Source of the DNA: a virus | Length of the DNA stretch: 64,000 nt | Reading direction: 5' to 3' (one strand) | IMG/VR virus record: IMGVR_UViG_3300032235_000792 | Part shown: piece after piece, positions 1 through 63,400 of the stretch | Numbering within the stretch: the first letter of the stretch is position 1 | Layout: every line of letters begins with the position of its first letter | Program-made: the position numbers and the translations under genes | The notes under the pieces: model-generated | Databases searched by the model: none | Told to the model about the DNA's origin: nothing | The model's input: only the letters and a program-made list of their open reading frames with translations

Positions 1-18
1 AGCAGTGTCAGAGGTTTT

Positions 19-588
19 ATGAGTGATAGAAGGCAAACAGACTTTGATATTCTTATAGAGCATGGGATAGATATCCGCGGCAGAACTGTGTACCTTCAGG
101 GTGAGGTTGATTCAGAGAATATCCATAAATTCGTAAAGATGATAAGGTACTTAGATAAGACAGATGGTGAGATAACTGTAATATTGGACTCAGGTGGCGG
201 TGATGTAAATCTAGGTTTTGCAGCATACGACGCTATAAAAGAATGTAGAAATGCTGTTCAAGTTAAAGTTATTGGTGTTGCCATGTCTATGGGTAGTATC
301 ATATTACAAGCAGCAGATCTTAGAGTTATGACCAGACACTCAAGAATAATGATCCACCGGGGTCAGATGGAAGTCGGCGGGCACTTTAATGATGTTAAAA
401 GGGCTGTTCAAGAAAACGATGAGATGGACAAAATATGTCTTCAGATATACCACGACAAGATAACAGATAAAGATCCTCAATTCAAGATCGCTCAGCTTCA
501 GAAGATGATGGATTTTGATACTTACATTTCAGCAGAAAAAGCATTGGAATTAGGACTGATCGACGAGATAGAAGGTGATGCTAACTGA
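19..588 (+). CDS. clpP: ClpP-family protease subunit (copy 1)
   Basis: RTVYLQGEV, ILDSGGGDV, AMSMGS (catalytic Ser), IMIH (His), DTYISAEKALELGLIDEI; GAGG RBS. Confidence 0.9.
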   Translation: MSDRRQTDFDILIEHGIDIRGRTVYLQGEVDSENIHKFVKMIRYLDKTDGEITVILDSGGGDVNLGFAAYDAIKECRNAVQVKVIGVAMSMGSIILQAADLRVMTRHSRIMIHRGQMEVGGHFNDVKRAVQENDEMDKICLQIYHDKITDKDPQFKIAQLQKMMDFDTYISAEKALELGLIDEIEGDAN

Positions 589-784
589 TCCAGTCACCTA
601 TAAAATAGCAACAAGCTATTATAAAACTTATATAGGCAATTGTCATAATATCATCAAACTTTAGTCTAAATTTTAACAATCTACCGATAAGATTAATTAC
701 TTTAAATAAGAAAAGACCAACAGCTGTAACTAATGCAATAGCCAAAAATCCCATTAGTATCTTACTTAAGATTATGTTAGTCAT
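581..784 (-). CDS. small membrane protein, hypothetical
   Basis: 67 aa, two hydrophobic segments. Confidence 0.55.
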   Translation of the reverse strand: MTNIILSKILMGFLAIALVTAVGLFLFKVINLIGRLLKFRLKFDDIMTIAYISFIIACCYFIGDWIS

Positions 785-940
785 ATTTTTTAACCTTAAA
801 ATATTTAAGCTTGCACGTGTATCTCATTTGCTTTGAATTACCAACTATTTTCTTACCGACCTTGTGACAATTTTCTTTATCTAAGAATTTACCTTGCTCA
901 ACAGAGCCATTGATAAGTTGTATAACAAGCACCCAAAGTT

Positions 941-1150
941 TCATCCCTCTTCCTTTGCTTTATCTTCAAAGTGTCTCTTTAAAATTTTTAATGAAGCAAT
1001 AACTATGATTGCAATTGCTACTAGATTAGAAAACTTAGCCGCAACTAGTAGTGGGAAACAAGCTAGTAACAAGTAAATTCCGACGAACACGTCAGAGAAT
1101 AGACTAATTCCAAATAATAAAAGTAACAGTAAATCTAAGTGTTTTCTCAT
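941..1150 (-). CDS. small membrane protein, hypothetical
   Basis: 69 aa hydrophobic ORF with GAGGA RBS. Confidence 0.55.
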   Translation of the reverse strand: MRKHLDLLLLLLFGISLFSDVFVGIYLLLACFPLLVAAKFSNLVAIAIIVIASLKILKRHFEDKAKEEG

Positions 1151-1956
1151 TAATCGTCCTCTTTTTCAAAGTGAGCAGCATGCCTTATTCCATGATGAGT
1201 TGTGTATGGACCGACTTCAGCCTCATCTAGAGCCTTAACTATAATCTCAGCCAAATCTACAACCGAATCACAGTGCTTATTCTTTAATAGTGTTTCTGCA
1301 ATAATAATCTCTAATTCACTCCGCTTCACTTTCAGGCTCCCATGCGTTATCAGAAATACCTAACTTAGGTAGATGTGCTCTCGGAGGCAGCATACCATAT
1401 CTTTCGGCAAAAAATATGAAGTAACTAGAAAGCATCTCTACTCGATCATGATAAGAAGTTTTATCTAGATTTCTTCCGTGTAAGAAGTCAAGATCCATTC
1501 TAGCTAAATCACCTTTTATGCAGTCGATCATTTCGCTTTTTTTCATTTCTTCCTCTTCTGTATACGGACACCACTTGGCTCCACAAGAAGTTATACAAAA
1601 AGGGCATGTCATTTTTCTTGCTCTTGTTTAATTTTTTCTATAGCTTTATAAATGTAAGTAGCAAATATAGGTATAAAAAGTAATGCTAATCCCTGGGTTA
1701 CTGTATCATCGGCTTTTAAGAAAAGTTTAAAAGATAAACCTAAACCTGCGCCACCTAAAAATAATCTAATCATTTTTGTAAACACCTTGCTTTAATTTTT
1801 ATATCATCTTTTTTGCTTTCTAATTCAAGAGCTGCGCTTATGGCCTTCAAACAACCCGCACTACTTTCAAATTCCGCTGTAGTAACTGAAACATGTGAAT
1901 TAATTATTGTTATTAATATAAGTATGTACACGATTATCCTTTTTAATTACTATAAG

Positions 1957-2283
1957 TTACTTAGTCTTAAAACAAGCTTTAACTTTTTCTAATAGAACTT
2001 TTTCATCTAGAGCACCAAGAATTCTGCAAACTTCTTTTCCATCTTTAATAAGTACCAGTGCAGGAATTCTATCTATACCTAGGCGACTAGCGAGTGCTCC
2101 TCCCGTTTGTGTGTCCAGGTCTACTTCCCTTACTTCAATGAATAATTTTTTAGAAACAGACTTAACTGCAGGTGCAATTTCTTTGCAAGGTTGACACCAT
2201 GTTGCATAGAATTTAATAATAACATTGTTAGCATAAGCTGACAATGAAGATAAAGATAACATCGCCAATAGTATGTATTTCAT
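1957..2283 (-). CDS. thioredoxin with N-terminal signal peptide
   Basis: FYATWCQPC active site, cis-Pro loop IDRIP; hydrophobic leader MKYILLAMLSLSSLSAYA. Confidence 0.85.
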   Translation of the reverse strand: MKYILLAMLSLSSLSAYANNVIIKFYATWCQPCKEIAPAVKSVSKKLFIEVREVDLDTQTGGALASRLGIDRIPALVLIKDGKEVCRILGALDEKVLLEKVKACFKTK

Positions 2284-2311
2284 AGTTTCCTTTTTCTAAT
2301 ATAAAATCCGT

Positions 2312-2722
2312 TTATGCCTGCTTGTATCTGAATAAATCTTTTCTTCTTTTTAATATAGCCTTCTTTAAATCATCTGTCTTATCTGCTTCAGTTAGTGAAG
2401 CATTTGCTGTTTCAGTTAGCTTCATTAAAACAAAGTCATCATAGTCTTCAGGAACCATCTCGTCCATTTCTCTATTCTTCTTGCCCGCGAATTCATCAAA
2501 ATGCTGAAGTGCATGAATAGTATATTTGTAGCAAGCGTCTTCTGGTGAACACTTTGCATCACCTATATCGAATTTACCGCACCTAGCTATATTCAATAAA
2601 CTCTCAGAAATGTGATCTATTTCTTCACTGTCGACCTGAAATAAGATAGGCTCATTCCAGTCTATTTTGTTATTGAAATCACGTTCTATAATGTACTTTA
2701 TACACTGACTTATGCTCATCAT
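2312..2722 (-). CDS. hypothetical protein
   Basis: 136 aa ORF, GGAGG RBS. Confidence 0.65.
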   Translation of the reverse strand: MMSISQCIKYIIERDFNNKIDWNEPILFQVDSEEIDHISESLLNIARCGKFDIGDAKCSPEDACYKYTIHALQHFDEFAGKKNREMDEMVPEDYDDFVLMKLTETANASLTEADKTDDLKKAILKRRKDLFRYKQA

Positions 2723-2747
2723 ATTAAATCCTCCGTGATTCTAAATA

Positions 2748-3212
2748 TTACTGAACTGTAGATGACGTCAGGTGACCAATTCGTTTGGAGATTTCTGATT
2801 CAACTTCCGAATATGCCTCAGAATCAGGTTGAAGAGTAGACAATAGCACCTTAAGATCAGATAGAACCTGATCATTTTTAACCTTGATCTTAGGCGTTTT
2901 TGAATTGCTGCCATTAGCCACAACCTTTGTCGTTCTAGGTGAATAAGATGATCCGCCATTTAGCTCTTTAGCTTTTCTAAAATGATTTGAGATCAAGCTA
3001 GATACGTATGCTTTAACCTTAGCAAGGTCAGACGTGACACCCTTATAAGCTACGACACCAGATGTAATATCGTTAACAATGCTATCTCTTAGAGATGTTA
3101 ATTGAGTTGATGTTATTTGATTTTTAACTGGCTGAGACGGATCGTAGCTAGAACCCAATAGATTTTTTACACCGTCAACTACTGCTTGCTTTTGAGAAAT
3201 TTGATTGCTCAT
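2748..3212 (-). CDS. paralogue family A protein (divergent copy), unknown function
   Basis: SQKQAVV...YVSSLISNHFRKAKELNGGSSY aligns with ORFs at 19121, 33589, 35760, 37372. Confidence 0.8.
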   Translation of the reverse strand: MSNQISQKQAVVDGVKNLLGSSYDPSQPVKNQITSTQLTSLRDSIVNDITSGVVAYKGVTSDLAKVKAYVSSLISNHFRKAKELNGGSSYSPRTTKVVANGSNSKTPKIKVKNDQVLSDLKVLLSTLQPDSEAYSEVESEISKRIGHLTSSTVQ

Positions 3213-3285
3213 GTGTCCTCCTAAAACGTTTAATTATCGCACCGTGCGATATAATAAAATTATACTAATTAAAAAATATACAGAA

Positions 3286-3573
3286 TCACAGACCGTAGGT
3301 AAATTCCATCTTCTCTCTTTCAGAGATTACAGTTATCTTTATTCTTTCAATTGGTAAAACAGACCATTCGAAATCAACAAGATGAAGCTTATCTGCATCA
3401 GCTGCCTTCAATAAAGAGGTGACAACTAGTTCCGCCTTCAATTGAGAAGAATCTGCCGTCTTCCATTTTTCTGGGTCTATGAGCTTATTGTCAGACATCC
3501 AAGATATCATCTCTTCTGCTGCACTAAAATCTATTAGCCTTTTAGTACAGTGAATTTTATTCAATATTGACAT
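3286..3573 (-). CDS. hypothetical protein
   Basis: 95 aa ORF in tightly packed minus-strand operon. Confidence 0.6.
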   Translation of the reverse strand: MSILNKIHCTKRLIDFSAAEEMISWMSDNKLIDPEKWKTADSSQLKAELVVTSLLKAADADKLHLVDFEWSVLPIERIKITVISEREKMEFTYGL

Positions 3574-3709
3574 GCAAGAATCCTTCAGAGTGATATGCGG
3601 TGTTTATCTCTATAATACTTAACTTATCTAGAACTTCTAAGAAGTTCATTATGGTCGCTGATGTAAGATATAAATCATTACCGTTGTGACTAATTAGATC
3701 AAATCTCAT
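3557..3709 (-). CDS. 50-aa micro-ORF (not in ORF track)
   Basis: MRFDLISHNG...LEVLDKLSII...HVNIE; ATG overlaps the TGA of the upstream ORF and fills the gap. Confidence 0.55.
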   Translation of the reverse strand: MRFDLISHNGNDLYLTSATIMNFLEVLDKLSIIEINTAYHSEGFLHVNIE

Positions 3710-3918
3710 CAACCCCACCAGTTGCTATCATTTCTATAGTTATAAAGTTTATCTGGCCCGTGTCTTAGCAGTATGTAAAGCTCTTTCGCCATCCAGTGCC
3801 TAACTACTCCATTGTGGCCGATATCTAACTTATAGAGCATATATGTAAGGCTATCACATATATCTGATTCATAGTTAATCATGTTAGTGTCAATAAAATA
3901 CACTTTATCACTTGTCAT
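3709..3918 (-). CDS. hypothetical protein
   Basis: 69 aa, overlaps the ligase 3' end. Confidence 0.55.
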   Translation of the reverse strand: MTSDKVYFIDTNMINYESDICDSLTYMLYKLDIGHNGVVRHWMAKELYILLRHGPDKLYNYRNDSNWWG

Positions 3919-5152
3919 TGCGCCACCGCAAGAATACTGGGAACCGCATAACTCCGTCTTCCGTTAGCTCTTGATACTTGATCTCAGCTATTTTACCTAT
4001 AAATTCTGACTGATTGCTCCACATATATTGTCTATCCTCATCAGTAAATCCAGAACCACATCTGCATGCAACACCATTCTCTTGAATAAGATCTACGCCA
4101 CCCATAACCCCGTCATTTCTAGAACCGGCTTCACCTTCATATAGACCGACCACACGACAATCTTGAGACTGCATGGTCTTTAGCTTAAGTAACTTGTTAG
4201 ATTTCTTGCCTAGATAATAAGGAATGTCAGGTAATAGCATAGCGCCTTCATAACCTTGAGCCATACATTCAGCTTCAAACTTGTAAGCATCGTCTGCATT
4301 GGTTATGAATTTTTGATCTACTCTAACTATATTTTCTTCAAACGAATATTCTAAATCAGCTAACTGATTTAACCTTTCTGATGTCTTCATACTAAAGGAC
4401 TTACTGTTCCATTCGCCATACGGAATATAGCCAAATACAAAATACTTCACATCACCGACCGTCGTTCCTCGTTTATTGGCAAAAGCAGATTTCTGCATAG
4501 ACTGAAAGTCATCGGACATAATCTCACCATCTAGTACTAGGCTAGCTTTAGGAAAAGATCTTTCTAACGATTCAGCTATTGACGGGAAGTTAACGAATTC
4601 TGTACCAGCACGAGAATACAGAGTAACTTTGCCCTCGTTTATAACAGCTAAGCACCTGTATCCGTCAAATTTAGGGCTTGCAAATACACCTTTAGATATG
4701 ATTTGATTAAGTGTTTTACATGATTTGCCATCTTTAGCGAGCATAACATCAAATAACGGAATATCAAATCCTGCTTCTGCAGCAGTCTCAGCACTAAAAC
4801 CAGCTTTTAGATCTTTTCTCAAGATTCTAAGATACCAGTCTACCTGCTTTTTTGAACACTTAATTAAGAAAAACACAAGCTCTAATCTTGCTTCGTTGCC
4901 CGTTATAACTCTAGTTTCTAATTTATTAAGTATTTCAATGAATTCTTCATGTAGATCGGGGAAGGCGACGCCTTCATTTATTAGGCTTTGACCTAAATCT
5001 AGCTTATTTATATAGAAGATTCTTTTGTAGTTTAGAGCAGCGTCCAGCAATTGAGCCAGACGCTTATTTTGAACATTATCTTTTAGTAATTTAAGTTTGC
5101 CATTTTTACTGCTCTCATCAGATATTGCCTGCAAAATATTGAGCTCGTCCAT
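3908..5152 (-). CDS. lig: ATP-dependent DNA ligase
   Basis: motif I KFDGYR, LDGEI, EGAML, LLKLK, OB-fold CGSGF and MRFPVF. Confidence 0.95.
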   Translation of the reverse strand: MDELNILQAISDESSKNGKLKLLKDNVQNKRLAQLLDAALNYKRIFYINKLDLGQSLINEGVAFPDLHEEFIEILNKLETRVITGNEARLELVFFLIKCSKKQVDWYLRILRKDLKAGFSAETAAEAGFDIPLFDVMLAKDGKSCKTLNQIISKGVFASPKFDGYRCLAVINEGKVTLYSRAGTEFVNFPSIAESLERSFPKASLVLDGEIMSDDFQSMQKSAFANKRGTTVGDVKYFVFGYIPYGEWNSKSFSMKTSERLNQLADLEYSFEENIVRVDQKFITNADDAYKFEAECMAQGYEGAMLLPDIPYYLGKKSNKLLKLKTMQSQDCRVVGLYEGEAGSRNDGVMGGVDLIQENGVACRCGSGFTDEDRQYMWSNQSEFIGKIAEIKYQELTEDGVMRFPVFLRWRNDK

Positions 5153-5154
5153 CG

Positions 5155-5973: not shown

Positions 5974-6193
5974 TTTTCTCCTTACGGGCTTGTAGTATCT
6001 TTTTCGCTTTATAAAGAATTGCTTTTCTAAAATCATTGTCAGTTTTACATGAAAGAAAGTCTAGCACAACTAACATTTTATCTAGTGAAAAGTTTTTCTT
6101 CTCCAACGAATCAATAATGTCATAAGCCCTTATTTTTTCGTATTTTTCTTGTTTTTCTACTATTCTAGCAGAATCAAAGAACATATATTTCAT
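5912..6193 (-). CDS. hypothetical protein
   Basis: 93 aa, GGAGG RBS. Confidence 0.5.
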   Translation of the reverse strand: MKYMFFDSARIVEKQEKYEKIRAYDIIDSLEKKNFSLDKMLVVLDFLSCKTDNDFRKAILYKAKKILQARKEKNEINSVTSFPASHVLQPQNK

Positions 6194-6224
6194 TTATACC
6201 TCCATTTTCTGGTATAATAGTTAC

Positions 6225-6671
6225 ATGACAAGTAAAGAAGAAATCGAAAAACACAAAAATGATTTTATCTCTGAATGGACGCCACGTTTAAGAATGTGGA
6301 TAAAGGACGTTGCTGGTCCTAGACGTCTATCAGAGGATCAACTTCAAGAATATCGCACCGCCGCAACATATGGCCTAATGGGTGCATTAGCTAATTATGA
6401 CAAATCAAAGGGTGCTAGTTTCGACACCTTTGCTGCTCATCACGTTAAAGGTCATTTAAAAAACCATATGGCAAGATCTGGCGATATTAAGTCAAATGTC
6501 TTAGGCCAAATTCAAGAAGCAGAAAGAGAAGCTAGAAAAGAAAGACAGCAAGCTCCTCAACAACCGGCATCATCAGCGCCAAAAATACCAACTATACCAA
6601 AACCAAGTGAACCAGCAGAGCCGAAATCTCCGACCCTGCCTGTGCAAAAACCTACTCCGGATCGTCCTTAG
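6225..6671 (+). CDS. minimal sigma-70-like factor (region 2 only, Pro-rich tail)
   Basis: GLMGALANYDKSKGASFDTFAAHHVKGHL resembles sigma region 2.2-2.4; no region 3/4. Confidence 0.7.
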   Translation: MTSKEEIEKHKNDFISEWTPRLRMWIKDVAGPRRLSEDQLQEYRTAATYGLMGALANYDKSKGASFDTFAAHHVKGHLKNHMARSGDIKSNVLGQIQEAEREARKERQQAPQQPASSAPKIPTIPKPSEPAEPKSPTLPVQKPTPDRP

Positions 6672-7619: not shown

Positions 7620-7659
7620 ATAACCTCCTTCATGAAGATATACATAAATATAAAATCTG

Positions 7660-12274: not shown

Positions 12275-12284
12275 TTCTTCTCCT

Positions 12285-17971: not shown

Positions 17972-17977
17972 AAGATC

Positions 17978-18190: not shown

Positions 18191-18392
18191 TTAAAATCTC
18201 ATTTACTAATGTTTTCAATGACTTATTGCCATCCACGTCCTTGTCTATGAAGATAACAGAGTCGAATCCGTACCCCCAAACTACAGACGTTGAGTTTTTC
18301 TTTACTTCTTCTATAAATTTAAGAAATATATCGCGTTGCTTGTCGTCCATTGTTCTCCGAATAACGCCGTTATGCGCTCGTAGCAGTGTCAA
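18177..18392 (-). CDS. hypothetical protein (C-terminal VNEILSD)
   Basis: 71 aa; start uncertain (ATG of MDDKQ has a GGAG RBS). Confidence 0.5.
   Translation of the reverse strand: MTLLRAHNGVIRRTMDDKQRDIFLKFIEEVKKNSTSVVWGYGFDSVIFIDKDVDGNKSLKTLVNEILSDKD
18379..18391 (-). repeat. TGACACTGCTACG 13-mer, dispersed copy
   Basis: plus strand reads cgtagcagtgtca; exact match to copies at 33-37 kb. Confidence 0.9.
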
Positions 18393-18865
18393 TCTTTAGA
18401 GAGTAGCCGCTGATTTCTTTTGTGTATAAAATTTGCAAACTTATTACCAAATAATATTTTTTTAGGATAGTCTGCTGACCAAACTATATCCGATGCACAG
18501 TCCGTGTTTTTAATAATGGCTACCCAGTATGCTACATTATAGAAAAACATCTTATATAAAACAAACACATAAAGAAATATACTGAAGAACTTTGACATGT
18601 TGTTGATTATATCTAATATACGGTACTTCTGCCCCTTAGTTGGATCCCAGTTGTACTTATCTCTAAACTCTTGCACGTAAACAATATCATGTAGTGACTC
18701 AGGGGCATCTAATTTTGCATACCATCGAGTTTCACCCCATTTAGACTTGATTTGCCCTTCAATTCTACCTACTTTCATACCCCAAAATTCAAAAGCTTTA
18801 AGGGTTGAAGAAGAGTGTTTTCGCGATCTCTCCTTGAACGCTATGTAGTCTTTATCGCTAATCAT
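18389..18865 (-). CDS. hypothetical protein
   Basis: 158 aa; QIKSKWGETRWY motif. Confidence 0.6.
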   Translation of the reverse strand: MISDKDYIAFKERSRKHSSSTLKAFEFWGMKVGRIEGQIKSKWGETRWYAKLDAPESLHDIVYVQEFRDKYNWDPTKGQKYRILDIINNMSKFFSIFLYVFVLYKMFFYNVAYWVAIIKNTDCASDIVWSADYPKKILFGNKFANFIHKRNQRLLSKD

Positions 18866-33009: not shown

Positions 33010-33310
33010 AGGGTTTGGCCGCGAGCCCCATAGCCCCACTTCGTCCCCAACAGACCAACTGCCTGCCCATCGACAGACCAGCGCGCGGGTCCCAACAGAT
33101 CGGTCCACGCGTACCGAGCAATGTTAGGCCGCAACATTGCTCAGCGCGACAGGCCTGTTACTGGCCAACAGACTGTTTCCCTAGGGGGTTTTGAGGTGCC
33201 TGCTGGCCAACAGAGCTCCCCCGTTGGGCGGCGTAGCAGTGTCACAGACGTCTAGCTGCCAGCAGACCCGCTTAACAGACTGCTGGCGTAGGACCTGTGG
33301 ACTTAACAGA
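33010..33310. other. GC-rich non-coding element with clustered AACAGA motifs and hairpins
   Basis: six AACAGA copies plus degenerate ones on the plus strand, perfect 10-bp stem gagcaatgtt/aacattgctc (33116-33142), one 13-mer copy (33232-33244). Confidence 0.6.
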
Positions 33311-33535
33311 CTACTCTTCTAGCATCTTGTTGATGGCCAGAGCTGCTCTGACTTCTGCTAGTAGCTCATCGTCATCACTGGCATAGGACTCGTACTCCTC
33401 TAACAGCTCTTGATCTGTCATATTGCGCAGCCCCGGAAAGTTACCGCCATAGAGGATATAGTCTCTGAGTTCAAAACAGCCATACATGTCATCGAACAGT
33501 ACATCCATCAGCTTGTTTCTAGTAACTTCGTCCAT
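33311..33535 (-). CDS. acidic small protein (C-terminal INKMLEE)
   Basis: 74 aa, AAGGAG RBS. Confidence 0.7.
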   Translation of the reverse strand: MDEVTRNKLMDVLFDDMYGCFELRDYILYGGNFPGLRNMTDQELLEEYESYASDDDELLAEVRAALAINKMLEE

Positions 33536-33588: not shown

Positions 33589-34071
33589 CTAGCCTACTAA
33601 GTGACGTAGGTGCTCTGGGAGAGCGTCAACATTGATCTCTACTTTAGCTTCGGGCTTGATCTCTGCTAGTCTAGCATCAATCGCTTGTTGAACTTGTGTT
33701 TTAGTTTCAGCATCAGTAACCGTCTTGAGTAGAGCTTTAAGAGCTTTGATCTGAGCGTCACCAGAACCAGAGCGAGAACCTGGGTTTTTGGTGGTATAGC
33801 TCTGACCATTGTTGAACTGCGGGTTCTTTCTAATCCAGTTATCTAGTAGGCCAGAGACATACTTCTTAAGCTCGGAGTCAAAGGCATACTTATCACTAGC
33901 TTCGGCTGACATCTGGACTTGGCCAGAGCGGAAGCCAGCGACCAGCTTCTCTTTCATAGTATTCTTTTGCTCTGAAGTTATGATGTCGGACAGCACGACT
34001 TCACCGCCCAGCTCATAGTTAGGCACTACAGACATGACAACTTGAGTAACTGCATCTTTTTGACTAATCAT
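33589..34071 (-). CDS. paralogue family A protein
   Basis: AGFRSGQVQMSAEASDKYAFDSELKKY...KNPGSRSGSGD...LPEHLRHL. Confidence 0.9.
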   Translation of the reverse strand: MISQKDAVTQVVMSVVPNYELGGEVVLSDIITSEQKNTMKEKLVAGFRSGQVQMSAEASDKYAFDSELKKYVSGLLDNWIRKNPQFNNGQSYTTKNPGSRSGSGDAQIKALKALLKTVTDAETKTQVQQAIDARLAEIKPEAKVEINVDALPEHLRHLVG

Positions 34072-34341
34072 ACTAAACCCCTTTAGTAGCTAGCATTATT
34101 GCTAGTGATTAAATATAATATTTGTTAGAGTCCTTGAGTTAATAACTGACAGTTCATCATTTTAGGTGTCTGCACTGTCAAACCGCCCACCGGATACTAA
34201 TATGCCTAGTCCACGCTTGTTAGTCTATGTAAGACTTTTTTACAACCGTATTGGTTGATGTTAATATATAGAATCTGTTAAGGCGGGGGATGGCAGGCGT
34301 AGCAGTGTCACTCGGCCACTAGGCCGAGCGCACGCTGGAGG

Positions 34342-35616: not shown

Positions 35617-35723
35617 AGTTGCCTCCGAGTTGGAGTCAGTCCGTGACTCGATTAATATTGTAATTATAAAAATATATAAAGTCTGTTAGAGTTTGTGTAG
35701 GTGTGAGCGGCGTAGCAGTGTCA

Positions 35724-35751
35724 AAATAATAGGTGGGGCTTTCGCCCCACC
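35724..35751 (-). terminator. intrinsic terminator with GAAA tetraloop
   Basis: GGTGGGGC-GAAA-GCCCCACC-TATTATTTT. Confidence 0.75.
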
Positions 35752-35759: not shown

Positions 35760-36248
35760 CTAGCCTAGCAGGTGGCGTAGGCTTTCAGGTATCAAGCTCG
35801 CATCGATCTCGATCTTAGGTTTCAACTCTTCAAGACGCTTATCGATCTCGACTTGGATGGTTGCCTTGACCGAAGGGTCGTTGACAGTACTCATCAATGC
35901 TCTCAGAGCTTTCAGCTTCTCGTCACCAGACCCGCTTCGTGATCCAGGATTCTTGGCTTGGTAAGTGTTGCCGCCGTTGAACTCAGGTGCCTTACGCAAC
36001 CAGTTGTTCAGTAGTCCGACACAGTACTTGCGGAGCTCGGAGTCGAAGGCATACTTGTCACTAGCCTCGCTCGACATTTGGATTTGACCCGAGCGGAACC
36101 CAGCGATCAGCATCGCCACAGCGTTCTCCTTGTCACTCACGGTGAACACCTCACTCACAGGTGTCTCGCCATTGAGAGTGTAGTTAACACCACGCTTAGA
36201 AAGAGTAGCTAACACGATAGAGACAGTTGCTTGACGTTGATTAACCAT
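35760..36248 (-). CDS. paralogue family A protein
   Basis: very similar to 37372-37857; start re-called to MVNQRQ after GGAGG. Confidence 0.9.
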   Translation of the reverse strand: MVNQRQATVSIVLATLSKRGVNYTLNGETPVSEVFTVSDKENAVAMLIAGFRSGQIQMSSEASDKYAFDSELRKYCVGLLNNWLRKAPEFNGGNTYQAKNPGSRSGSGDEKLKALRALMSTVNDPSVKATIQVEIDKRLEELKPKIEIDASLIPESLRHLLG

Positions 36249-36412
36249 ACGAGATCCTCCCAAGGATTAAGCGCGCACGACATGTGAGCACTATTAGTTA
36301 ATTAATATAATTAAATAAGTTATATATTTAATTATAAATAATATTAAAGTCTGTTAAATTATATAGCGGCGTAGCAGTGTCAGTAGGCCTTGCGGCCTAC
36401 TGCACCAGATAA

Positions 36413-36688: not shown

Positions 36689-36757
36689 GATTACCTCCAA
36701 GATAGAGAGTCGTCCATGACTCAGTTAATTTATATTGATTGTTAAGATTTGTTAGGG

Positions 36758-37027: not shown

Positions 37028-37184
37028 AGTACCTCCAAGTTGGAGTCAGTCCGTGACTCGATTAATATAATAAATAATTTTAATTTTATTTAATTATAAA
37101 TAATATTAAAGTCTGTTAAATTATATAGCGGCGTAGCAGTGTCAATAGGTAAGCGGGCCATCATGGCCCGCATAACCTCGGAGA

Positions 37185-37371: not shown

Positions 37372-37857
37372 CTAGAGTAGGTGGCGTAAGCTCTCAGGGA
37401 TCAGATCAGCATTGATCTCGATCTTAGGCTTAAGCTCTTCGATTCGCTTATCGATCTCAGATTGGATCGTAGCCTTGGTAGTAGGATCACTTACCTTAGA
37501 CATCAGAGCTCGTAGGGCTTTCAGCTTCTCATCACCAGATCCCGTTCTAGATCCAGGGTTCTTAGCTGTATAAGCATTACCACCGTTGAACTCAGGAGCC
37601 TTGCGGATCCAGTTGTTAACCAGACCAACCACATATTTCTTAAGTTCAGAGTCGAAGGCATACTTATCAGAAGCCTCAGAGGACATTTGTATCTGTCCAG
37701 ATCGGAAGCCCGCGACCAGCTTGTTGACAGCTTGTTCCTTGTCAGTTACCGTTAGGACATCTGCGATACATTGCTCACCGTTTAGGTTGTAGTCGATACC
37801 GCGCTCAGAGAGAACAGATAAGATAACAGATACAGTTGCTTGACGTTGAGATACCAT
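37372..37857 (-). CDS. paralogue family A protein
   Basis: MVSQRQATVS...GLVNNWIRKAPEFNGG...IPESLRHLL. Confidence 0.9.
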   Translation of the reverse strand: MVSQRQATVSVILSVLSERGIDYNLNGEQCIADVLTVTDKEQAVNKLVAGFRSGQIQMSSEASDKYAFDSELKKYVVGLVNNWIRKAPEFNGGNAYTAKNPGSRTGSGDEKLKALRALMSKVSDPTTKATIQSEIDKRIEELKPKIEINADLIPESLRHLL

Positions 37858-39594: not shown

Positions 39595-39703
39595 ATAGTT
39601 CTTTTAAGTTATCAACAACTTATGCGGTAGGGGCCCCCTAACCGCTTCGCGGGACATTAAAAATGCTTGATAATATTATACTATGTTACAGTATAATAAA
39701 TGC

Positions 39704-40390
39704 ATGGACAACATAGTCAAGACATACTTAGAACAAATGGGTGCAATACCGATGCTTAGCGTGAAGGAAGAGGCGCGCATCGCTAAATTAGCATTTGAAG
39801 GTGATCAAGAAGCTAGGAAGATACTCATAGAGTCTAACTTGAGACTAGTTGTTTCTATCGCTAAGAAATACACCAGCTCAGGCATGGACTTACTAGACCT
39901 CATCCAGGAAGGTAACATCGGCTTGATGAAAGCAGTTGAAAAATTTGAGTATAAGCGCGGACATAAGTTCAGTACTTACGCTACATGGTGGATAAGGCAG
40001 GGAATAACAAGATCTATTGCAGATTCCGGTCGTACCATCAGACTGCCTGTTCATATGGTAGAAACAGTTGGCAAGATATTCCAGTCTATACGTGAAATAA
40101 TATACGACACCGGAAAAGAGCCAAGTGTTGCAGAGTTATCTAAGTATATGGGAATAACTGAAAAGAAATTAAGAGAAGCACTTGATGTAGCCAAGATACC
40201 AGTCTCGCTAGATATGAAGATATATGATGACTCGGCAAGCTTAATGGATAAAGTCCCTGATATAAAATTAGATTATCATTTAGATAGAGTCGATACGGCA
40301 GATCTCTCTAAGAATATAAAGATAATATTGAAGACTCTCACCCCAAGGCAAGAAAAAATACTGAGAATGAAGTTTGGGATTTCAGATTAA
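39704..40390 (+). CDS. RpoD-like sigma-70 factor truncated before region 4.2
   Basis: region 1.2 ([12 protein letters not shown]), [52 protein letters not shown]; ends at [10 protein letters not shown]; start re-called to MDNIV. Confidence 0.9.
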
Positions 40391-44846: not shown

Positions 44847-47030
44847 ATGGCAATTAATGTATCATTCAACGGTTCTACGATCTATAAGCCAGGTGCTTAC
44901 TCTAGAACTACAATAGATCTTGGCGGTGGATTTCCACTTGGTCCTGCTGGTATAGTAGCCATTTTTGGTGAATCAACTAAAGGAAAGCCCGGTAGCGAAG
45001 AAATTATCGCAAATAATGTATTTAATGCTAATCAGATAGCACAAGTTCGTCAAAAGTACGGATCTGGTCCTATTGTTGATGCCATGAACTTCTTGTTTGC
45101 TCCAGCTTCTGATGGAGCTATTCCAAGCGGTGCTCAAGCTGTGTACATCTATAAAACAAATGATTCAACTAGAGCGTCAATTGCTTTAGCTAATTCATTC
45201 GGTACTGTTAGATCTCTAGAGCATGGTGTTGGTGGTAACACTATTACATTCTCTGCTTCTGAAGTTTCTGAGGTTGCACCGTCATTGTCATCTTCTTCTG
45301 CATTTGATGAAGCAGCAATCGCTGCTGGTTCATTCGATATTTTCGTAAACGGTGTTAAATCTACTGTTGCTGTTGCTGGCGGTTATGCTGATAAAGCAGC
45401 TCTAGTTGCGGATGCCGCTTCGTGGTCGGTAGATGATGTATCTTTTGTAGTTGGTGGCGCAGATGGTGCTTGTACTTTACAAGTTTCAATTGATGCTGAC
45501 GCACAAGCTGCTAGAAAGGGTTGGGGAAAATCAATTCAATTAGCAGATGGTTCTGGCGCTCCTCTTGCTGCAATGAACATGTCTGAAGATATGGAAGTTT
45601 CTTCTGTTGAATCAGCTATGACAGTTACAATTAAACAAACAAGAGATCTTCTTCAAGAACAAGACACTATCGGTGGTAACGTTGTTCTAGAAGTTGGTTA
45701 CAGCGGTGCTCAAGCTGCAGCAAGCATAGAAATCACAGATACGCAAGTCATATTGACTGCTGGTGCATCTATCTCTATCGACAAAAGCTCATACCCAACA
45801 CTTAGTCAATTAGTTAACGCTATCAACCTTAATCCAGGATGGAAAGCCGCTCTAACTAGTTCACTATATAATTCAATTTCGCCTAAGATGCTTGATCAAG
45901 TTGACGTAGGCGCTAAATCACCTGACGCAGAAACTAGCAAGCCAGCAAGAATCAAGAAAGATTCTGGTGAAGCTGCTCAGCTATTTGCAGAATCTGCTAT
46001 CGTTGATATTGCAGATCAATCTTCTGCTGGATTAATGGATGCAATGTCTGAAGCTGCTTTGACTGGTGGAACACTTGGATCAACAACATCTGCAGACATC
46101 GTAGATGCACTAGCTGCTCTTGAAGGTGTTCGAGTTAATGCAGTAGTTCCTCTATTCTCTAGAGATGCTATCGTTGATTCTGACACTGCTACGGGCGATG
46201 TTGCTGATAATCTTACTGATGTCGCTTCATCATATACAATATTAGGTATTCATCAAGCTGTTAAAACTCACTGCAGCTTAATGAGCACAACTAAAAATAG
46301 AAGCGAAAGACAGGGTTACCTTTCTTATAAGAACGACTTCGTCTCTTGTAGAGAAAGAGCGTCACTTCTTGCTGATGCAAGAATGCAGCTTGCAATTCAA
46401 GATATTCGCAATATCGATTCTCAAGGAAACATCAAGTGGTTTCAACCATGGGCTCAAGCTTGTATGCTTGCTGGTGCTCGTTCTGGTTCTCCAGTTGGTA
46501 CTCCACTAACATTCAAATTCTTCAACGCAGTTGGAATCAGACAAACTGAACAGTCTATGTCTACGTCAGAAGAAGATATCATTGCTGATTTTAATCCTAA
46601 TACAGATGCTGATATTGCTATTCAAAGCGGTATTTCGTTCTTCGAAGCTCCTCAGTTGGGTGGAATAAGATGTGTCCTAGATAATACAACTTATCAAAAA
46701 GATGGTAACTGGGTTTACAACAGAGGTAACGTACTTTACGCTGCTGACATTTTAGCGTTTGATTTCAGAAATCAAATGGAGAATCTATATGTTGGTAAGA
46801 AAAATACAGTTAAAGCGAGTGAAATTAAATCAACAGCTTCTACTATACTAGATACATATCTAGCGCAAGGTATTACTGTCTCTTCTAATGGCGCACCAAA
46901 TGGCTATAAAGATCTTATTGTAAGTGTTAACGGTAATGTTATCAATATTAGCGTTACTGTAGTTCTTGTTGAAGGTATTGACTTTGTATTAAGTGATATC
47001 ACAATTACAAGAGCACAATCACAAGCTTAA
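44847..47030 (+). CDS. contractile tail sheath protein
   Basis: IYKPGAYS N-terminus, VAIFGES..GKP, sheath-like C-terminal domain; followed by tube genes. Confidence 0.88.
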   Translation: MAINVSFNGSTIYKPGAYSRTTIDLGGGFPLGPAGIVAIFGESTKGKPGSEEIIANNVFNANQIAQVRQKYGSGPIVDAMNFLFAPASDGAIPSGAQAVYIYKTNDSTRASIALANSFGTVRSLEHGVGGNTITFSASEVSEVAPSLSSSSAFDEAAIAAGSFDIFVNGVKSTVAVAGGYADKAALVADAASWSVDDVSFVVGGADGACTLQVSIDADAQAARKGWGKSIQLADGSGAPLAAMNMSEDMEVSSVESAMTVTIKQTRDLLQEQDTIGGNVVLEVGYSGAQAAASIEITDTQVILTAGASISIDKSSYPTLSQLVNAINLNPGWKAALTSSLYNSISPKMLDQVDVGAKSPDAETSKPARIKKDSGEAAQLFAESAIVDIADQSSAGLMDAMSEAALTGGTLGSTTSADIVDALAALEGVRVNAVVPLFSRDAIVDSDTATGDVADNLTDVASSYTILGIHQAVKTHCSLMSTTKNRSERQGYLSYKNDFVSCRERASLLADARMQLAIQDIRNIDSQGNIKWFQPWAQACMLAGARSGSPVGTPLTFKFFNAVGIRQTEQSMSTSEEDIIADFNPNTDADIAIQSGISFFEAPQLGGIRCVLDNTTYQKDGNWVYNRGNVLYAADILAFDFRNQMENLYVGKKNTVKASEIKSTASTILDTYLAQGITVSSNGAPNGYKDLIVSVNGNVINISVTVVLVEGIDFVLSDITITRAQSQA
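46181..46193 (+). repeat. TGACACTGCTACG 13-mer inside sheath gene
   Basis: exact match, opposite orientation to left-arm copies; encodes D-T-A-T. Confidence 0.9.
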
Positions 47031-55624: not shown

Positions 55625-55626
55625 TT

Positions 55627-56724
55627 ATGTACTATACGGTCAGAGATTCATCAGTATTCCAAGATCCTAATAGCTACAGTGCATACAACAATAAAGAAAA
55701 TAGAATAATGGTTGGCACGGTAAGAGAGGAACTGTTTGACAAGGAGTCCAAGCAGACCAAATATCTCGTGGACGTTTGGCTGGACGGAATCACTATGTCG
55801 ATTGTTTGCTCTAACTGCACTAGATTCGGGGGGATTTATAATTATGAGGAGTACACTAGGCAAACATACAAAGTAGACGATAGCAAACGACCAGTCTCCA
55901 ACTCCGTAATTCCTGGTGATCATGTCATTGTCGCTTTCTTAGGCGGAGATGCTAGAGAGGGTGTCATATTAAGCGGATACAAGCACTTTGGTCGACGTGA
56001 GACTATAGATTTTAAAAAAGATTCAGCTAGCTCTCAGTTTTTGAATAGAGAAACTAAAATAGCAGCGACAAAGTATGCAAGTGAATTTAATGGTGTAGAA
56101 AAGATGATAAATGCAGACGGTGAGTATCGTGTGACATTCAAAGGACAGCCTACTAATCTTGCTAATTTAGTAGCAATAGGCGACAAAGAGATACCAAATC
56201 CCCAGTATGATACGTCAATAGGGTCTAGCTATTATGAATTTGATAAAACTGGCTCATACTTCATAACTGACAACTCTAAAGAAAACCCTCAATCAATAAA
56301 AATAGACAAGCAAAATGGTAAAGTTATTATAACATCTGGAAAAACTTCGCTCGTTATAGATAAAAAGGAAGAGTCTTACATCATAACAAATAAGAAAGTA
56401 ACTTTTAACACTGCTACGGAGTGGAATTTAAACACAAAGAGTACGAGTATAAAATCTTCAAATGTAATAATTGCAGAATCTAAAGATATAAAGACGACAG
56501 GTAAGATTACACAAAAAGGTGACGTCCAGATAACTGGAGGAGTTAAGCAGACCGGCAATAATGAGATAACTGGTAACTTAAAAACTACTGGTGAAACACT
56601 TCTAGCTGGTGGCTCTTTTCCGCTTATATATGATATAGTTCTAATACTAGGTGTGGGTAATGCAGGTGCACCTGTTGTAAGCAGCGCGATAGTACTTAAG
56701 ACAGCCCTAACAAAGGCAACGTAG
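55627..56724 (+). CDS. putative baseplate central spike (gpV/gp5-like)
   Basis: OB-like PGDHVIVAFLGGD..GVIL and C-terminal beta-helix repeats (TTGKITQKGDVQITGGVKQTG). Confidence 0.65.
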   Translation: MYYTVRDSSVFQDPNSYSAYNNKENRIMVGTVREELFDKESKQTKYLVDVWLDGITMSIVCSNCTRFGGIYNYEEYTRQTYKVDDSKRPVSNSVIPGDHVIVAFLGGDAREGVILSGYKHFGRRETIDFKKDSASSQFLNRETKIAATKYASEFNGVEKMINADGEYRVTFKGQPTNLANLVAIGDKEIPNPQYDTSIGSSYYEFDKTGSYFITDNSKENPQSIKIDKQNGKVIITSGKTSLVIDKKEESYIITNKKVTFNTATEWNLNTKSTSIKSSNVIIAESKDIKTTGKITQKGDVQITGGVKQTGNNEITGNLKTTGETLLAGGSFPLIYDIVLILGVGNAGAPVVSSAIVLKTALTKAT

Positions 56725-57743: not shown

Positions 57744-57805
57744 TCATAACTCATTTTGCTATATAATATATAAATATCATTGATATTTAAAGAATATAGG
57801 CACAT

Positions 57806-58825: not shown

Positions 58826-60426
58826 TGGCGGCAGGATTTGAGAACAGCATTTCTGAGCTCTCTAAACTAGATCTATGGTATAAGGTCAGTGACGGAGTAC
58901 GACTTAATTTAACTGACGTGCCAGAGTTGATAAGATTAAGATGGTTGTATTTCAGAGATAACTGGCAGTTCTTAAAAGAGAGCTATATATCTAAAATACC
59001 AGACTACTCAGATCCTAATAAGTTAAAGTTAGAAATAGATTTATTTAGCGAATTTATTGAATCTCAAAGAAACTACAGTATAAATAGAAATCCATTTGAC
59101 TCAGAAAGTATATTGTATAGATTTTTCTCTATATTTGATTTGACGAGCGTATATGATATATCTCTTTCTTTCGAAGAAGTAAATATACTGTCAACGAAAA
59201 TCAACTCTATCAGAAACATGACGAGAAGAGATTTTCTTGAAATGCGCGGCAAGATAGTCCAGGACAGGGATGCTATAGCCGATAGAGTTGGATTATCAGA
59301 CCCTGATTATAACTCTACGTACGACAGAAGCTCTCAGCCATATAGAACTGCAGTAAAAAACAAAGATATAAACAACATGTTTGAGTTGCAACAGGCAATT
59401 AAGTCCATAGATTATATATTGGCTAATTATTTTACGACAGAAAGACTAGCAGTAGATCCTTTTGCAATAGCAAGAAGTAATGCCAATAATCCACTTATAG
59501 ATATTGGTAATTATTCTTCTGGCGTTTTAGTTAAAATGCAATATGGTGAGAACCTGCAGTCTTTAGCAAAAAGAACACTCGGTACGCCAGATAAATGGAT
59601 AGACATTGCAATAGCTAACGGATTAAAGCCTCCTTATATAGATGAGATAGGTTACAAAATACCACTCATATCTAATGGAAGCAAGAATCAAATAAACATA
59701 GCTGGAAAAGATTCTTTTCAGAATGCTAACATAGACAAGGTTTACGTAGGACAAGTCCTGTTCCTGAAATCAGATATCGAAAATTCTACAGAGCAAAGAT
59801 CTATAATAAACATTAGACAAGTGCCTATATCTGATGAGATAATTATAGAGTTAGACGGAGTGCAGGACCTAGATCGGTACAAGATCGGCGACAATGCAAA
59901 CATTAGAGTATATAGACCTAACACCACTAACAGTTCATTTTATATACTGATACCAACAGACGAGCAGATTGAGCCAGAGGTCAAAAACGGAACACCTTGG
60001 TTTCTAAAAAGCAGTGATGCGGTAGAGAAAAAACAAAAAATTGACATTAATATAAGCGATGACGGCGACATAAACTTTAACTCTACAGGGGATCTGCAGT
60101 TATCTTACGGATTAGACAACTCTATACAGGCAATAAAACTTAAGATGTCAGTAGAGAGTGGCGAATTAAAGAGGCATCCATCATTTGGGTTAATATCTGT
60201 TGCCGGAGCAGGCAGCACAGATGTCGAATCAACAAAAAGATCATTGACTAGCTCTATAGTTGATAGTATAACTGCTGATAGCAGATTTTCAATGGTAGAG
60301 TCAATATCTGTTGACTATTCTAATCCAAAAGACGCAGAATCACCAAGTTATTTCAGTATAAATATATCAGTTAGATTGTCAGGGTCTAATCAACTAGTTC
60401 CAATAAGTTTTAATATAAGAGGATAG
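58825..60426 (+). CDS. putative baseplate wedge protein (LysM-like and gp25-like parts)
   Basis: GENLQSLA..LG..DKW.DIAIANGL..P; C-terminal GELKRHPSFG...DSRF. Confidence 0.6.
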   Translation: MAAGFENSISELSKLDLWYKVSDGVRLNLTDVPELIRLRWLYFRDNWQFLKESYISKIPDYSDPNKLKLEIDLFSEFIESQRNYSINRNPFDSESILYRFFSIFDLTSVYDISLSFEEVNILSTKINSIRNMTRRDFLEMRGKIVQDRDAIADRVGLSDPDYNSTYDRSSQPYRTAVKNKDINNMFELQQAIKSIDYILANYFTTERLAVDPFAIARSNANNPLIDIGNYSSGVLVKMQYGENLQSLAKRTLGTPDKWIDIAIANGLKPPYIDEIGYKIPLISNGSKNQINIAGKDSFQNANIDKVYVGQVLFLKSDIENSTEQRSIINIRQVPISDEIIIELDGVQDLDRYKIGDNANIRVYRPNTTNSSFYILIPTDEQIEPEVKNGTPWFLKSSDAVEKKQKIDINISDDGDINFNSTGDLQLSYGLDNSIQAIKLKMSVESGELKRHPSFGLISVAGAGSTDVESTKRSLTSSIVDSITADSRFSMVESISVDYSNPKDAESPSYFSINISVRLSGSNQLVPISFNIRG

Positions 60427-60427
60427 T

Positions 60428-63400
60428 ATGGCTAATATAGATATTAAAAGTTATAATCAGATTCTTGGCGATATGGTTCGAAAAATTGTCGCAGATACGC
60501 CGGTAAACGACGTAAGTGTGGGATCCGTGCTACTAACTATACTTGAAGCAGCAGCCTCAAACGATTATGAAAACAACACTGCAATTCTTAACGTACTAGA
60601 ATTACTTAACATTGACATTATTAAAAACAATGACTTAGATGCATATGCTTCTAATCTGGGTCTCACTAGAAAAATTGCGACAAAGTCTACCGGATTTGTG
60701 GTTGTGTCTGATTCTAGCATAACAAAAAGAAGCACAACACTGTACTCCATAAAGCCTGCACCTATAGCAGGATCTACTAAGCTTTACGTAAATAATGCGT
60801 CAAATTGGAATGCCTTTGGTGGGTCAGTTTATATAGGTAGAGGTACACCTAATTTCGAAGGCCCATTAACATATACATCAATAGAGAATAACGGAACTTT
60901 TTATACAATAAATCTAGCGTCTTCTTTACAAAAAGATCATTTAATCTCTGAATCTGTGATAGATGGGCAAGGAACCACTGACAGGAGCATACCGTCTGGG
61001 ACTATTGTTAAAATTCCAGCGAACAGTGTATCTCCAGAAATAGAGTATTCTACACTAAGATCTTCAGTCGTTCCAGCAGGAGAAGACACATCAGAGAGTA
61101 TACCTGTCGTTGCAGTAAGAGCAGGTTCAGCCAGCAACGCAGGAATAGGGACTATATCTTTATTTAAAGCGCTACCAACAAACTTCACTTCTGCAACAGT
61201 TAAAAATACTACAGCTTTTTCTAGTGGTAGAGATATTGAGTCTGATGAAGATTTTAGAGACAGAATCAAATCTTACTCTAATTCTTTAGCAAGAGGCACA
61301 AAAGATGCTATTTTATCTGCTATTAGAGGAATATCAGATGACACTGACGGTAAGCAAGTTCAATCTGCTGTAATAACGGAGCCAGCAAGTGTTGGTGATG
61401 CCTCTATTGTTTACATAGACGACGGTGCTGGATTTCAGCCAAGCTATGAGGGTCAATCTGTTGACCTATTGATTCCTTATGCCAATGGTAGCGAAGAGTT
61501 TTTGCAACTTGCAAACTATCCTTTACCAAGACCTCAAGTTATAAATTCTGCTGAGTCTCCGTTTTCTTTAATAGAAGGAAGCGAGCTCAAGGTTAAAGTA
61601 GACGATATAGAAGAGACTATCCTATTTACATCTTCTTATTTTAGAAATATGGCTATTGCTTCAATATATGAAGTAGTTATAGCCATAAATAGTCAATCCA
61701 CGCTATTTAAATGCAGATTAGATAAGGAATCTACTAGACTGCTGCTATATCCGGTTAGTAATATTGCTGAAAATATACAAGTAATAAGTGATGAAAGTAC
61801 ATTAGATGCGAATCTACAACTAAAGTTTCCTACAAACGAGTTTTCTTACATTAAGTTATATAAAAATAATCAACTTCTTAAAGAAGTTGAAAAACCAGCA
61901 ACAGTCGCGTCGGCCCCTTTCTACACATGGAACATCAGCGCGCCTGGAAACCTAGCCTTATCTGTTGACGGTACACCAGATCAAGATCAATACTTTACTG
62001 CATCAGATTTTAATGGTGCAACATTCACGTCGTTAAATTTAAGTGATTGGGTTACGGCAATTAATCGAAAATATGCAGGCATTACTGCATCCGAAACAAC
62101 GACAGGGCGACTTGTAATAACATCAAATAAAGAAGGTAGTGCATCAACTATTGAGATAGTTGGTGGGTCTTATTTGGATAAAATTTTTGGCGGACAGCAG
62201 ATATCGGCTGTTGGACAGAACTCGGACTACACACTTAATAGACAAAATGGTAGTATTCAAATTAGTACAACGATTTCTGCAGGCGATTCTATATCTGCCG
62301 GATCTAGCGACACCAAAGGCTCAATTACTTCGTATTCAGCTGTTGGCGGATTATTCAACTTAGCGGTAGACGCAAATGGTAGACCATCAGAAATGGTAGT
62401 AGTAGCCGATGCAGAAAGAGTTGTTATTAGAAATTTGAATATGGCTATCGGTTCAACTATACAAGTGTCTAATCAGGGTTCTAGCATAATGAGAGTAATG
62501 TCAGGTGCTGCTGTAACTTTCAAAGAGGTTCAACCTGGGGACTACATCTATTTAGTAAACAGAGGAGATACGGCCGAAGGTGGATCTTGGCTGGGCATCG
62601 AATCATCTGGGCTTTACAAGGTTAAATATAAAGGGTCACATACGGCTGATGGTGTAGATACATACTTAGACGTAGATAACGCTAATATGTTTACTGGTGG
62701 ACCTTACACATACTCAGTGCAAGATACAGCAGACATATACGCCTTTTATTCTGACGCATATCCTCAGATTTGGAGAGGCTCGTACCTCTCGGTTCCTGCA
62801 ACAGCAAGTGCGCAAGAAGTTGTCACCTCATTAAATTCTAATTTAAGAAACACAAAGGCATCTTTATTTAAAACAAATTATGTAAAAATAACGTCCACTA
62901 CAGAAAATACCGGTAGTGTGTCAATACCTGTATCCGTTGGATCGTGTGCGCAGCTTTTTGAAACAGAGCAGGAGCGGCAGGGCGGAACTCAGTCACATAT
63001 AGCAAGTATATCCCCAGACAAGGACTACATAACATTCTTCAGAGCATCTGAACCTACAAATACATGGCTAGATAGACACACTTACACTGACATTAGAGGA
63101 TCTATAAGTCTAGACCAAGAATCAAACATAGACGGAACTGGTACTTATTCTGAAATCATTAATGACACTGCTACGGTAGACTTTAACACAGACTGCTCAT
63201 ACGATAATATCGTAACTATAACAAGTGGTTCAAATAAGGGGCAAATTAGAACTGTACGCTCTATAATAGATTCTGAAAACATAGGGACACGGAACGATAA
63301 TCTTAGAACATTAATGGATTTTACTGCTGGCGATGAATATCAGATTGTCAAAAGTTTAGAAATTTCAGCAGAAGATACTATGGTAGTTATTATGGATGAT

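Follow-up and report, generated by a model that had tools for sequence, protein, structure and literature searches.

A 13-base word kept letter for letter in a family of large uncultured phages and its possible role as a docking site beside early promoter-like boxes

What is the function of a short asymmetric DNA word that recurs, letter for letter, both between and inside the genes of a phage? The question is raised by IMG/VR virus record IMGVR_UViG_3300032235_000792, of which a stretch of 64,000 nucleotides (hereafter the window) was analysed. The 13-mer TGACACTGCTACG (core GACACTGCTWCG), which is not palindromic, is present in this 64-kb window as eight exact copies, one copy with a single mismatch, and a 10-nt partial copy cut by the window edge. 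With up to one mismatch allowed there were nine matches, against an expectation of 0.05 from dinucleotide-preserving shuffles, in which the largest value was 1; the word was the commonest 13-mer of the window, and likewise of G1 and G5, two of the related genomes described below. A first-pass annotation of the window had described the word as a polarised signal with an orientation switch, comparable in logic to Chi or KOPS, or else as a nut/put-like RNA site. In our pattern search, all of the coordinates and strands that it had listed were re-found, including those of the mismatched and partial copies; the gaps between copies outside the main cluster, which it had put at 13–18 kb, measured 9–18 kb.

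The window comes from a myovirus without a close named relative. Its tail sheath protein is 33% identical to that of Myxococcus phage Mx1, the nearest named phage by protein, and a DNA search with the sheath gene gave no match among named phages. In IMG/VR we found 51 related loci with sheath identities of 39–74%. A first scan, carried out with a 17-mer, gave seven viral contigs, of which six were relatives by sheath homology and the seventh (G004, 176,837 bp) was a relative by gene order. Relatives were scanned for the 13-mer in the form of ten large genomes (G001–G010), and four complete relatives were fetched in full. The 13-mer was present in all ten, in 6–15 copies each with up to one mismatch, while the reversed control gave none, and it was also carried by two further fragments. 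The four complete relatives are broadly collinear with the window, and their proteins are only about 42–56% identical to those of G1. Mx1 gave one match against one control match, from which we conclude that it lacks the motif. The 13-mer is thus a real signal, kept letter for letter in a large family of uncultured phages of about 165 kb, and, because it is kept family-wide at such protein identities, a reader conserved across the family is implied. A literature search for the word returned no description, only matches to unrelated primers, in agreement with the earlier opinion that it is not a described motif. A scan of bacterial genomes for a 15-mer gave mostly single, scattered matches, and the one multi-copy match proved to be the relative G006 (146,658 bp; L215, LNEN01000305.1), which is deposited as a contig of a Cytophagales metagenome-assembled genome. 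The strong Shine-Dalgarno (SD) usage of these phages makes it doubtful that this deposit reliably identifies a Cytophagales host.

To compare copies across genomes, those containing the core GACACTGCTWC in the window and in the four complete genomes were divided by context into intergenic and in-gene copies. The intergenic copies ended in TACG in 31 of 35 cases, usually followed by CC, and formed an array of 4–7 in the early cassette region with a few copies elsewhere. They lay 0–19 nt past a stable hairpin of variable sequence, which carried a T-run in G1 and G5 and often had none in the window and in the G4, G6, G7, and G8 clades. A compact promoter-like box followed 32 of 48 intergenic copies; its wording was AACAGAYTYTAT in the window, ACAGACTCGATATA in G1, AACCGATTCGAT in G5 and G9, and CCCGAYNYTATA in the clade of G4, G6, G7, G8, and G10. 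Copies, boxes, and the gene array were co-oriented. The first C of the box lay 28–31 nt from motif base 1 in 19 of the 32 units, 38–41 nt in six, 47–50 nt in two, and 56 nt in one. Expressed as the gap between word and box, this was usually 15–16 bp (range 15–43 nt upstream of the box), and as the filler sequence was unrelated between clades, the gap is constrained rather than inherited. The longer spacings, few as they are, fall in steps of about ten bases, which suggests placement on the same face of the helix.

Within the window, five minus-strand copies followed hairpins of −16 to −22 kcal/mol and four of these preceded a promoter-like box. The copy at 37132–37144 lies 8 nt past a hairpin at 37153–37171 and has its box at 37106–37117, with a spacer of 15–16 nt; that at 36370–36382 abuts the hairpin 36383–36400 and has its box at 36344–36355, again with a 15–16 nt spacer. 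The copy at 35711–35723 is found 8 nt past the hairpin 35732–35751 and is followed by a box at 35676–35687, and that at 34298–34310 abuts the hairpin 34311–34328 and is followed by the box AACAGATTCTAT at 34268–34279. The last copy of the array (33232–33244) comes after a hairpin at 33259–33286 and is followed by GC-rich non-coding DNA without a box. All five of these copies are exact. The first-pass annotation had assigned four cluster copies to a position after a GC-rich hairpin and before a promoter: its count holds for the promoter-like boxes but not for the hairpins, which number five. The sixth exact intergenic copy (18379–18391, minus strand) stands apart from the array, also without a promoter box; its TGA is the stop codon of an open reading frame (ORF) at 18389–18865, the next start codon is 28 nt downstream, and the G1 copy at 117995 shows the same arrangement.

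The box itself behaves, as judged by its placement, as the promoter of the early and middle arm. In the window it also occurred alone, always in the sense direction, 17–45 nt upstream of the SD-ATG of other left-arm genes. As a 12-nt word, AAC(A/G)GAYTYNAW, it was located on the minus strand at window positions 2312, 7009, 7661, 20612, 22077, 25938, 34279, 34896, 35687, 36355, 37117, 37924, and 37978. It often contains GANTC and a CCGAT core that resembles sigma-28 −10 elements, and relatives have clade-specific dialects of it. It is probably a phage-specific promoter class, distinct from the promoters of the late genes, which read G-TATAAT or TGnTATAAT, have no −35 element, and are often almost leaderless. 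Matches to sigma-70-type promoters were not enriched at 32.5–39.8 kb (20 versus 15.7 ± 4.6). The TTGACA-like start of the 13-mer was tried as a sigma-70 −35 element and rejected, as there was no −10 element at 16–18 bp. The best sigma-70-type match of the region (39693–39720, minus strand, TTGACT-16 nt-TATTAT) is at the divergent junction, directed into a chain of micro-ORFs and the array of cassettes, and could be an immediate-early promoter.

We favor, at about even chances, a reading in which the 13-mer serves as a docking site on the DNA and acts together with the adjacent promoter, both being parts of a unit of hairpin, 13-mer, spacer, and promoter. The conservation of the word, its two contexts, its spacing to the box, and its lack of polarity (described below) are direct observations; from them we infer a protein reader, a promoting effect of its binding on initiation, and a candidate for its identity. 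The word would be the recognition site for a sequence-specific factor of the family's transcription apparatus. Between genes it would form the invariant upstream part of a composite unit, in which a variable RNA hairpin is followed by the 13-mer and CC, a non-conserved spacer, and the compact promoter-like box; such a unit would close one early-gene cassette and open the next. The 13-mer would take the place of a −35 element or of the site of a promoter-proximal activator, with the bound protein helping RNA polymerase to use the adjacent promoter and perhaps also blocking read-through from the upstream cassette. Taking the KATAWW end of the box as its −10-like part would put the 13-mer at roughly −48 to −36; taking the CCGAT core as the −10 element would center the 13-mer near −35. 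The orientation of the word would follow that of the promoter, and for this reason all copies in the window would be directed outward from the divergent junction near 39.5 kb. In-gene copies would be additional binding sites of the same factor.

Might the word instead be a promoter in its own right? A compact promoter, occupying about −13 to −1 and placed in tandem with the downstream box, could be used by host core polymerase with a truncated phage sigma-like factor, for example the product of the region-2-only ORF described below, in the manner of T4 gp55. Like other phage-specific promoters the word is a single asymmetric block conserved family-wide, its intergenic copies always point toward a gene, and it is the sole conserved element at window position 18379 and at G9 5399, 18–28 nt before an SD-ATG. 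Read as sequence, GACACT fits the −10 hexamer pattern of A at −11 and T at −7, and two to three truncated sigma-like ORFs are available. Yet half of the in-gene copies are antisense, some of them directed at convergent genes (for example, that at the 3′ end of the primase gene in G1); there are only 8–15 copies per genome, mostly in one array and none before most operons; the copy at 18379 overlaps a stop codon, and the gene that follows may be co-transcribed; and a fixed gap of 15–16 nt to a second promoter is unexpected for independent tandem promoters. We consider a self-sufficient promoter unlikely.

The constant company of a hairpin raises the possibility that the signal acts in RNA, where the hairpin together with UGACACUGCUACG would serve for processing, stabilisation, or nut/put-like antitermination of early transcripts that read through. 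The intergenic copies are always sense, and since they lie 0–19 nt past a stable hairpin that often has no T-run (in the window and the G4, G6, G7, and G8 clades), read-through RNA would carry the motif. This possibility fits poorly with the location of the intergenic copies upstream of the box. Furthermore, in G1 and G5 the copies lie just beyond canonical hairpin-plus-T-run terminators, so that most RNA would not contain the motif, and 12 of the 25 in-gene copies are not in the mRNA strand; the sense copies in the sheath and baseplate genes would be cut. A search for a complementary RNA or a trans-acting hammerhead directed at the motif found none, and the only Rfam match was one tRNA. An RNA-level site, as the first-pass annotation had offered, is therefore improbable.

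The composition of the array brings in a further alternative, that the 13-mer is mainly a recombination boundary providing shared homology for cassette exchange, both within a phage and from one phage to another, and has no reader of its own. The copies delimit cassettes in a region of different composition. Three paralogs of a 160-amino-acid (aa) protein family (minus strand, 37372–37857, 35760–36263, and 33589–34071) alternate there with small acidic cassette proteins; three paralogs are present in G1 too, and the other small cassette genes differ between the window and G1. The promoter-early stem-loop (PeSL) elements of T4-type phages act in this way (PMC2839356). Against such a role, homologous exchange would have to work with only 13–17 bp, a very short length; neutral homology would have picked up changes among genomes with 42–56% protein identity, as the hairpins and spacers have; and both the in-gene copies at synonymous sites and the fixed spacing to the box would be left unexplained. 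We give exchange a small chance of being the main function. The 160-aa family had no match in Pfam or PHROG, and a protein-atlas look-up gave no functional lead. Two other features of the cassette array were observed. Short GAGTC-loop-GACTC hairpins are found in the 5′ leaders of cassette genes just before the ribosome-binding site (e.g., 35633–35649, 36707–36722, and 37045–37062), and the GC-rich non-coding stretch after the last cassette (33043–33312) contains about seven reverse-oriented copies of the box core (read as GTCTGTT in the sense direction); an equivalent GC-rich stretch follows the last cassette copy of G1.

The in-gene copies, with the coding strand assigned from the longest open frame, differed in form from the intergenic ones. 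They ended in TTCG or TTCA in 17 of 25 cases, had neither a hairpin nor a downstream promoter-like box, and were not followed by any promoter at a fixed distance. Thirteen were sense and 12 antisense; the sense copies read DTA(T/S) and once (M/L)TLLR, and the antisense copies always (E/V)AVS. To ask how many would arise by codon usage, synonymous codons were shuffled within genes of the four complete genomes, which gave 0.05–0.37 core copies per genome as compared with 4–8 observed, an excess of about 20- to 40-fold. The in-gene copies are kept by nucleotide-level selection, and on this point the first-pass description of a non-palindromic cis signal was borne out. In the window, the exact in-gene copies are in the tail sheath gene, in a variable loop (46181–46193, plus strand), and in a large baseplate-wedge gene (63163–63175, plus strand); both have the codons xxT GAC ACT GCT ACG and encode DTAT, as had been reported. 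Apart from the window, only its closest relative, L129, had the sheath copy; L129 has A for T at the first base and retains the twelve-base core GACACTGCTACG, with 7 of 12 flanking codons different. The baseplate copy is common to the G1 clade only, with an exact copy at the homologous position, and is not found in G4, G5, or G9. The single-mismatch copy TAACACTGCTACG (56406–56418, plus strand), in a baseplate-region gene, has a broken GACAC core, is not conserved in relatives, and may be a chance occurrence.

Most in-gene sites have no counterpart at the homologous position of another genome, their positions being mostly lineage-specific. As exceptions, G1 and G9 both have an antisense copy near the start of the dCMP deaminase gene, and a small endonuclease-like gene holds a sense copy in both G5 and G9. 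Positions thus turn over and copy number is kept. The spacing of copies was slightly more even than random (combined p ~0.02 against a null with the same minimum gap), an effect that had initially looked stronger. A preference for gene ends was also considered, and was not convincing, with 12 of 25 copies within 150 nt of an end versus about 34% expected. The first-pass annotation had made its case depend on further copies with a strand bias elsewhere, and on silent-site conservation of the sheath and baseplate copies. Further copies are indeed present in all large relatives; in contrast, the in-gene copies are not strand-biased and the sheath and baseplate copies are poorly conserved.

These properties bear directly on polarity. 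Up to about 39.3 kb the genes of the window lie on the minus strand, with a few isolated exceptions on the plus strand, and from 39.68 kb onward they lie on the plus strand; the left arm encodes a ligase, two ClpP-like proteases, a Lon/ClpA-like ATPase, ThyA, ribonucleotide reductase, and endonuclease V, and the right arm a sigma factor and, after it, virion and tail proteins. The sign of the GC skew switches near 39–40 kb. A polar genome-wide signal of the Chi or KOPS type, read relative to replication or to DNA-end entry, could be seen in the co-orientation of all eight exact window copies with the two arms and in the skew change; all of the matches, the edge partial aside, are sense relative to the local genes. 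The skew is, however, confounded with gene strand in the window, and the orientation switch coincides with the switch in gene strand. As six of the eight exact copies are intergenic, and count as promoter-linked units that follow their genes, the switch only mirrors the divergent gene arms and is a by-product; the two sense in-gene copies are unremarkable. Across the window and the four complete genomes the near-equal division of in-gene copies between sense and antisense, with no replichore-like pattern in their absolute strands, largely refutes a polar signal. The density of about one copy per 15 kb and the clustering of copies in one array of 4–7 also argue against it, and the 13-mer is longer than any Chi sequence known to us. 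We regard this reading as very improbable. A second set of repeats was noticed in G1 near the other strand-switch point of that genome, where a conserved word of about 19 nt that includes TTAAGCACATCAGG occurs nine times at 150838–152660 (the L096–L097 region), mostly at intervals of about 165–190 bp.

An asymmetric word that is dispersed on both strands, lies in genes in any orientation, and changes position while keeping its copy number could also mark a site-specific single-strand nick or other cleavage in virion or replicating DNA, in the manner of T5, phiKMV-like phages, and phage tf, with proximity to promoters being secondary. The slight evenness of spacing is in line with this, as is the left end of the window. 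There, the first letters, AGCAGTGTCA, are the complement of motif bases 1–10 and form the partial minus-strand copy (1–10), which is 8 nt upstream of a plus-strand ClpP-like gene (19–588), antisense to that gene, and syntenic with a single-mismatch copy at G1 135412. The window start, apparently also the start of the record, thus falls between motif bases 10 and 11 (TGACACTGCT^ACG), which either is a coincidence of about 1 in 1000 or hints that the DNA has a physical end or a nick at that point. On the other side, the related assemblies close as circles, and the terminal repeats of G5 and G9 are assembly overlaps of 123–144 bp with ends that are not at the motif. A search for contig ends at the motif found none but one, which lies inside a repeat-rich cassette array. 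Cleavage would explain neither the fixed spacing to the box nor the strict intergenic form, ...TACG-CC, and no nickase was identified. A nick site is accordingly quite unlikely.

If the word is a docking site, which protein would read it? A T7-like RNA polymerase (PF00940) was not found in three complete relatives, in a search in which the control genomes also gave no match; the co-orientation with downstream genes expected of T7-like promoters was seen for intergenic copies and not for in-gene copies. The C-terminal domain of MotA was likewise not found. The window does encode a phage sigma factor of 235 aa (39683–40390, plus strand) with regions 1.2, 2, 3, and 4.1, which aligns to residues 100–326 of the 371 of Bacillus subtilis SigA and ends just before the −35-reading region 4.2, and thus has no region 4.2 helix-turn-helix. 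It has hundreds of metagenomic relatives, none of which is assigned to a cultured or named phage. A second ORF (6225–6671, plus strand) matches sigma region 2 only, below threshold in the window and above the cut-off in its G1 ortholog.

In all seven motif-carrying relatives that were searched, we found a protein of 116–170 aa with four conserved cysteines (Cys4) and a C-terminal region-4.2-like helix-turn-helix, whose genes lie outside this window (e.g., L137:1468–1818, minus strand; L136:1234–1674, plus strand; L144–L147); Mx1 has no such protein. Its Pfam region-4 match is below the cut-off (16.8–21 versus 24.1 bits). When it was folded with the C-terminus of the sigma factor, the complex scored 0.46 against 0.00 for the best control, with a partner predicted local distance difference test (pLDDT) value of at least 56 and a run agreement of at least 52%, a weak result. 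Of 80 solved complexes, 7 scored in this low range; of 110 mismatched pairs, 2 passed, and both had scores in the same range. A pass at such a score is wrong more often than it is right, and this one may stem from a likeness to intact sigma factors of solved structure. From its sequence, the Cys4 protein is a candidate reader of the 13-mer, and a lead only; together, it and the SigA-like sigma may represent a sigma factor split into two polypeptides. A more specific form of this proposal, that the 13-mer is the −35-type element of such a split sigma, with regions 1.2–4.1 in one protein and 4.2 supplied by the Cys4 protein, that it drives the early cassettes, and that Cys4 protein bound inside genes forms a second, non-promoter layer of marked sites, seems to us unlikely to hold in full.

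Several observations weigh against the docking-site reading that we favor. The putative recognition helix of the Cys4 protein varies between clades and the DNA word does not. The 4–8 in-gene copies per genome, which occur in either orientation and without a downstream promoter, are not explained by docking beside a promoter, and about 30% of the intergenic copies have no box (e.g., window 18379 and 33232, and G9 5399, which is 18 nt from a start codon). The 28–31 nt mode could be a minimum spacing under compaction instead of a contact, the ten-base stepping of the longer spacings is based on few cases, and the position of the word relative to +1 is one that we infer. Finally, hairpins abut the 13-mer directly even where they have no T-run, and because of this an RNA-level or termination role of the hairpin and 13-mer pair is possible.

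The constancy of a 13-base word across large, uncultured phages that are widespread in freshwater and in the environment points to a single conserved reader, apparently tied to an unusual piecemeal sigma system. The word provides an easy marker for the phage family and for its early-cassette boundaries, and a bait for finding the factor. Its in-gene copies, at silent sites and in either orientation, suggest a second DNA-level role beyond those in phage-promoter and PeSL models. In the PeSL cassettes of T4-type phages, a repeated intergenic stem-loop that ends upstream transcription is combined with an early promoter; the promoters are host sigma-70 consensus promoters, and the stem-loop lies variably within or beside them (Arbiol et al. 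2010, PMC2839356). The units described here similarly pair an intergenic stem-loop with an early promoter-like box, in a plastic region of small genes without annotated function, and the gene content between units similarly differs between relatives. Unlike in PeSL cassettes, sigma-70-type promoters are not enriched, and there is an extra invariant 13-mer, separate from hairpin and box, that is conserved family-wide and is also found inside conserved genes.

The middle promoters of T4, at which MotA and AsiA-remodelled sigma-70 act, offer a parallel in that, upstream of a −10-type element, a box specific to the phage stands in for the −35 contact, and the T4 late factors gp55 and gp33 offer another in the division of sigma functions among small phage proteins. 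The core of the MotA box, TGCTT(t/c)A, is contained in the ...TGCTTCA variant of the 13-mer. The resemblance ends, however, at the absence of a detectable MotA C-terminal domain, at the greater distance of the 13-mer from the −10-like element, and at the phage's possession of its own SigA-like sigma without region 4.2. The nick consensus sequences of T5, phiKMV-like phages, and phage tf are short asymmetric words present in a handful to about 14 copies per genome and dispersed regardless of coding. The 13-mer is likewise short, asymmetric, and dispersed regardless of coding sequence; those words are defined by mapped nicks and do not stand at a set distance from a promoter, whereas the 13-mer is known from sequence and is tied to a promoter-like box at a fixed distance. 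The IncP plasmid RK2 has 12 copies of a 13-bp KorB operator (OB), in promoter-proximal, promoter-distal, and far-from-promoter classes, which are palindromic and are read by a repressing dimer of the ParB family. The phage word differs from these operators in being asymmetric, and resembles them in having about a dozen 13-bp copies per replicon, some fixed upstream of promoters and others far from them or within genes, for all of which one reader is proposed.

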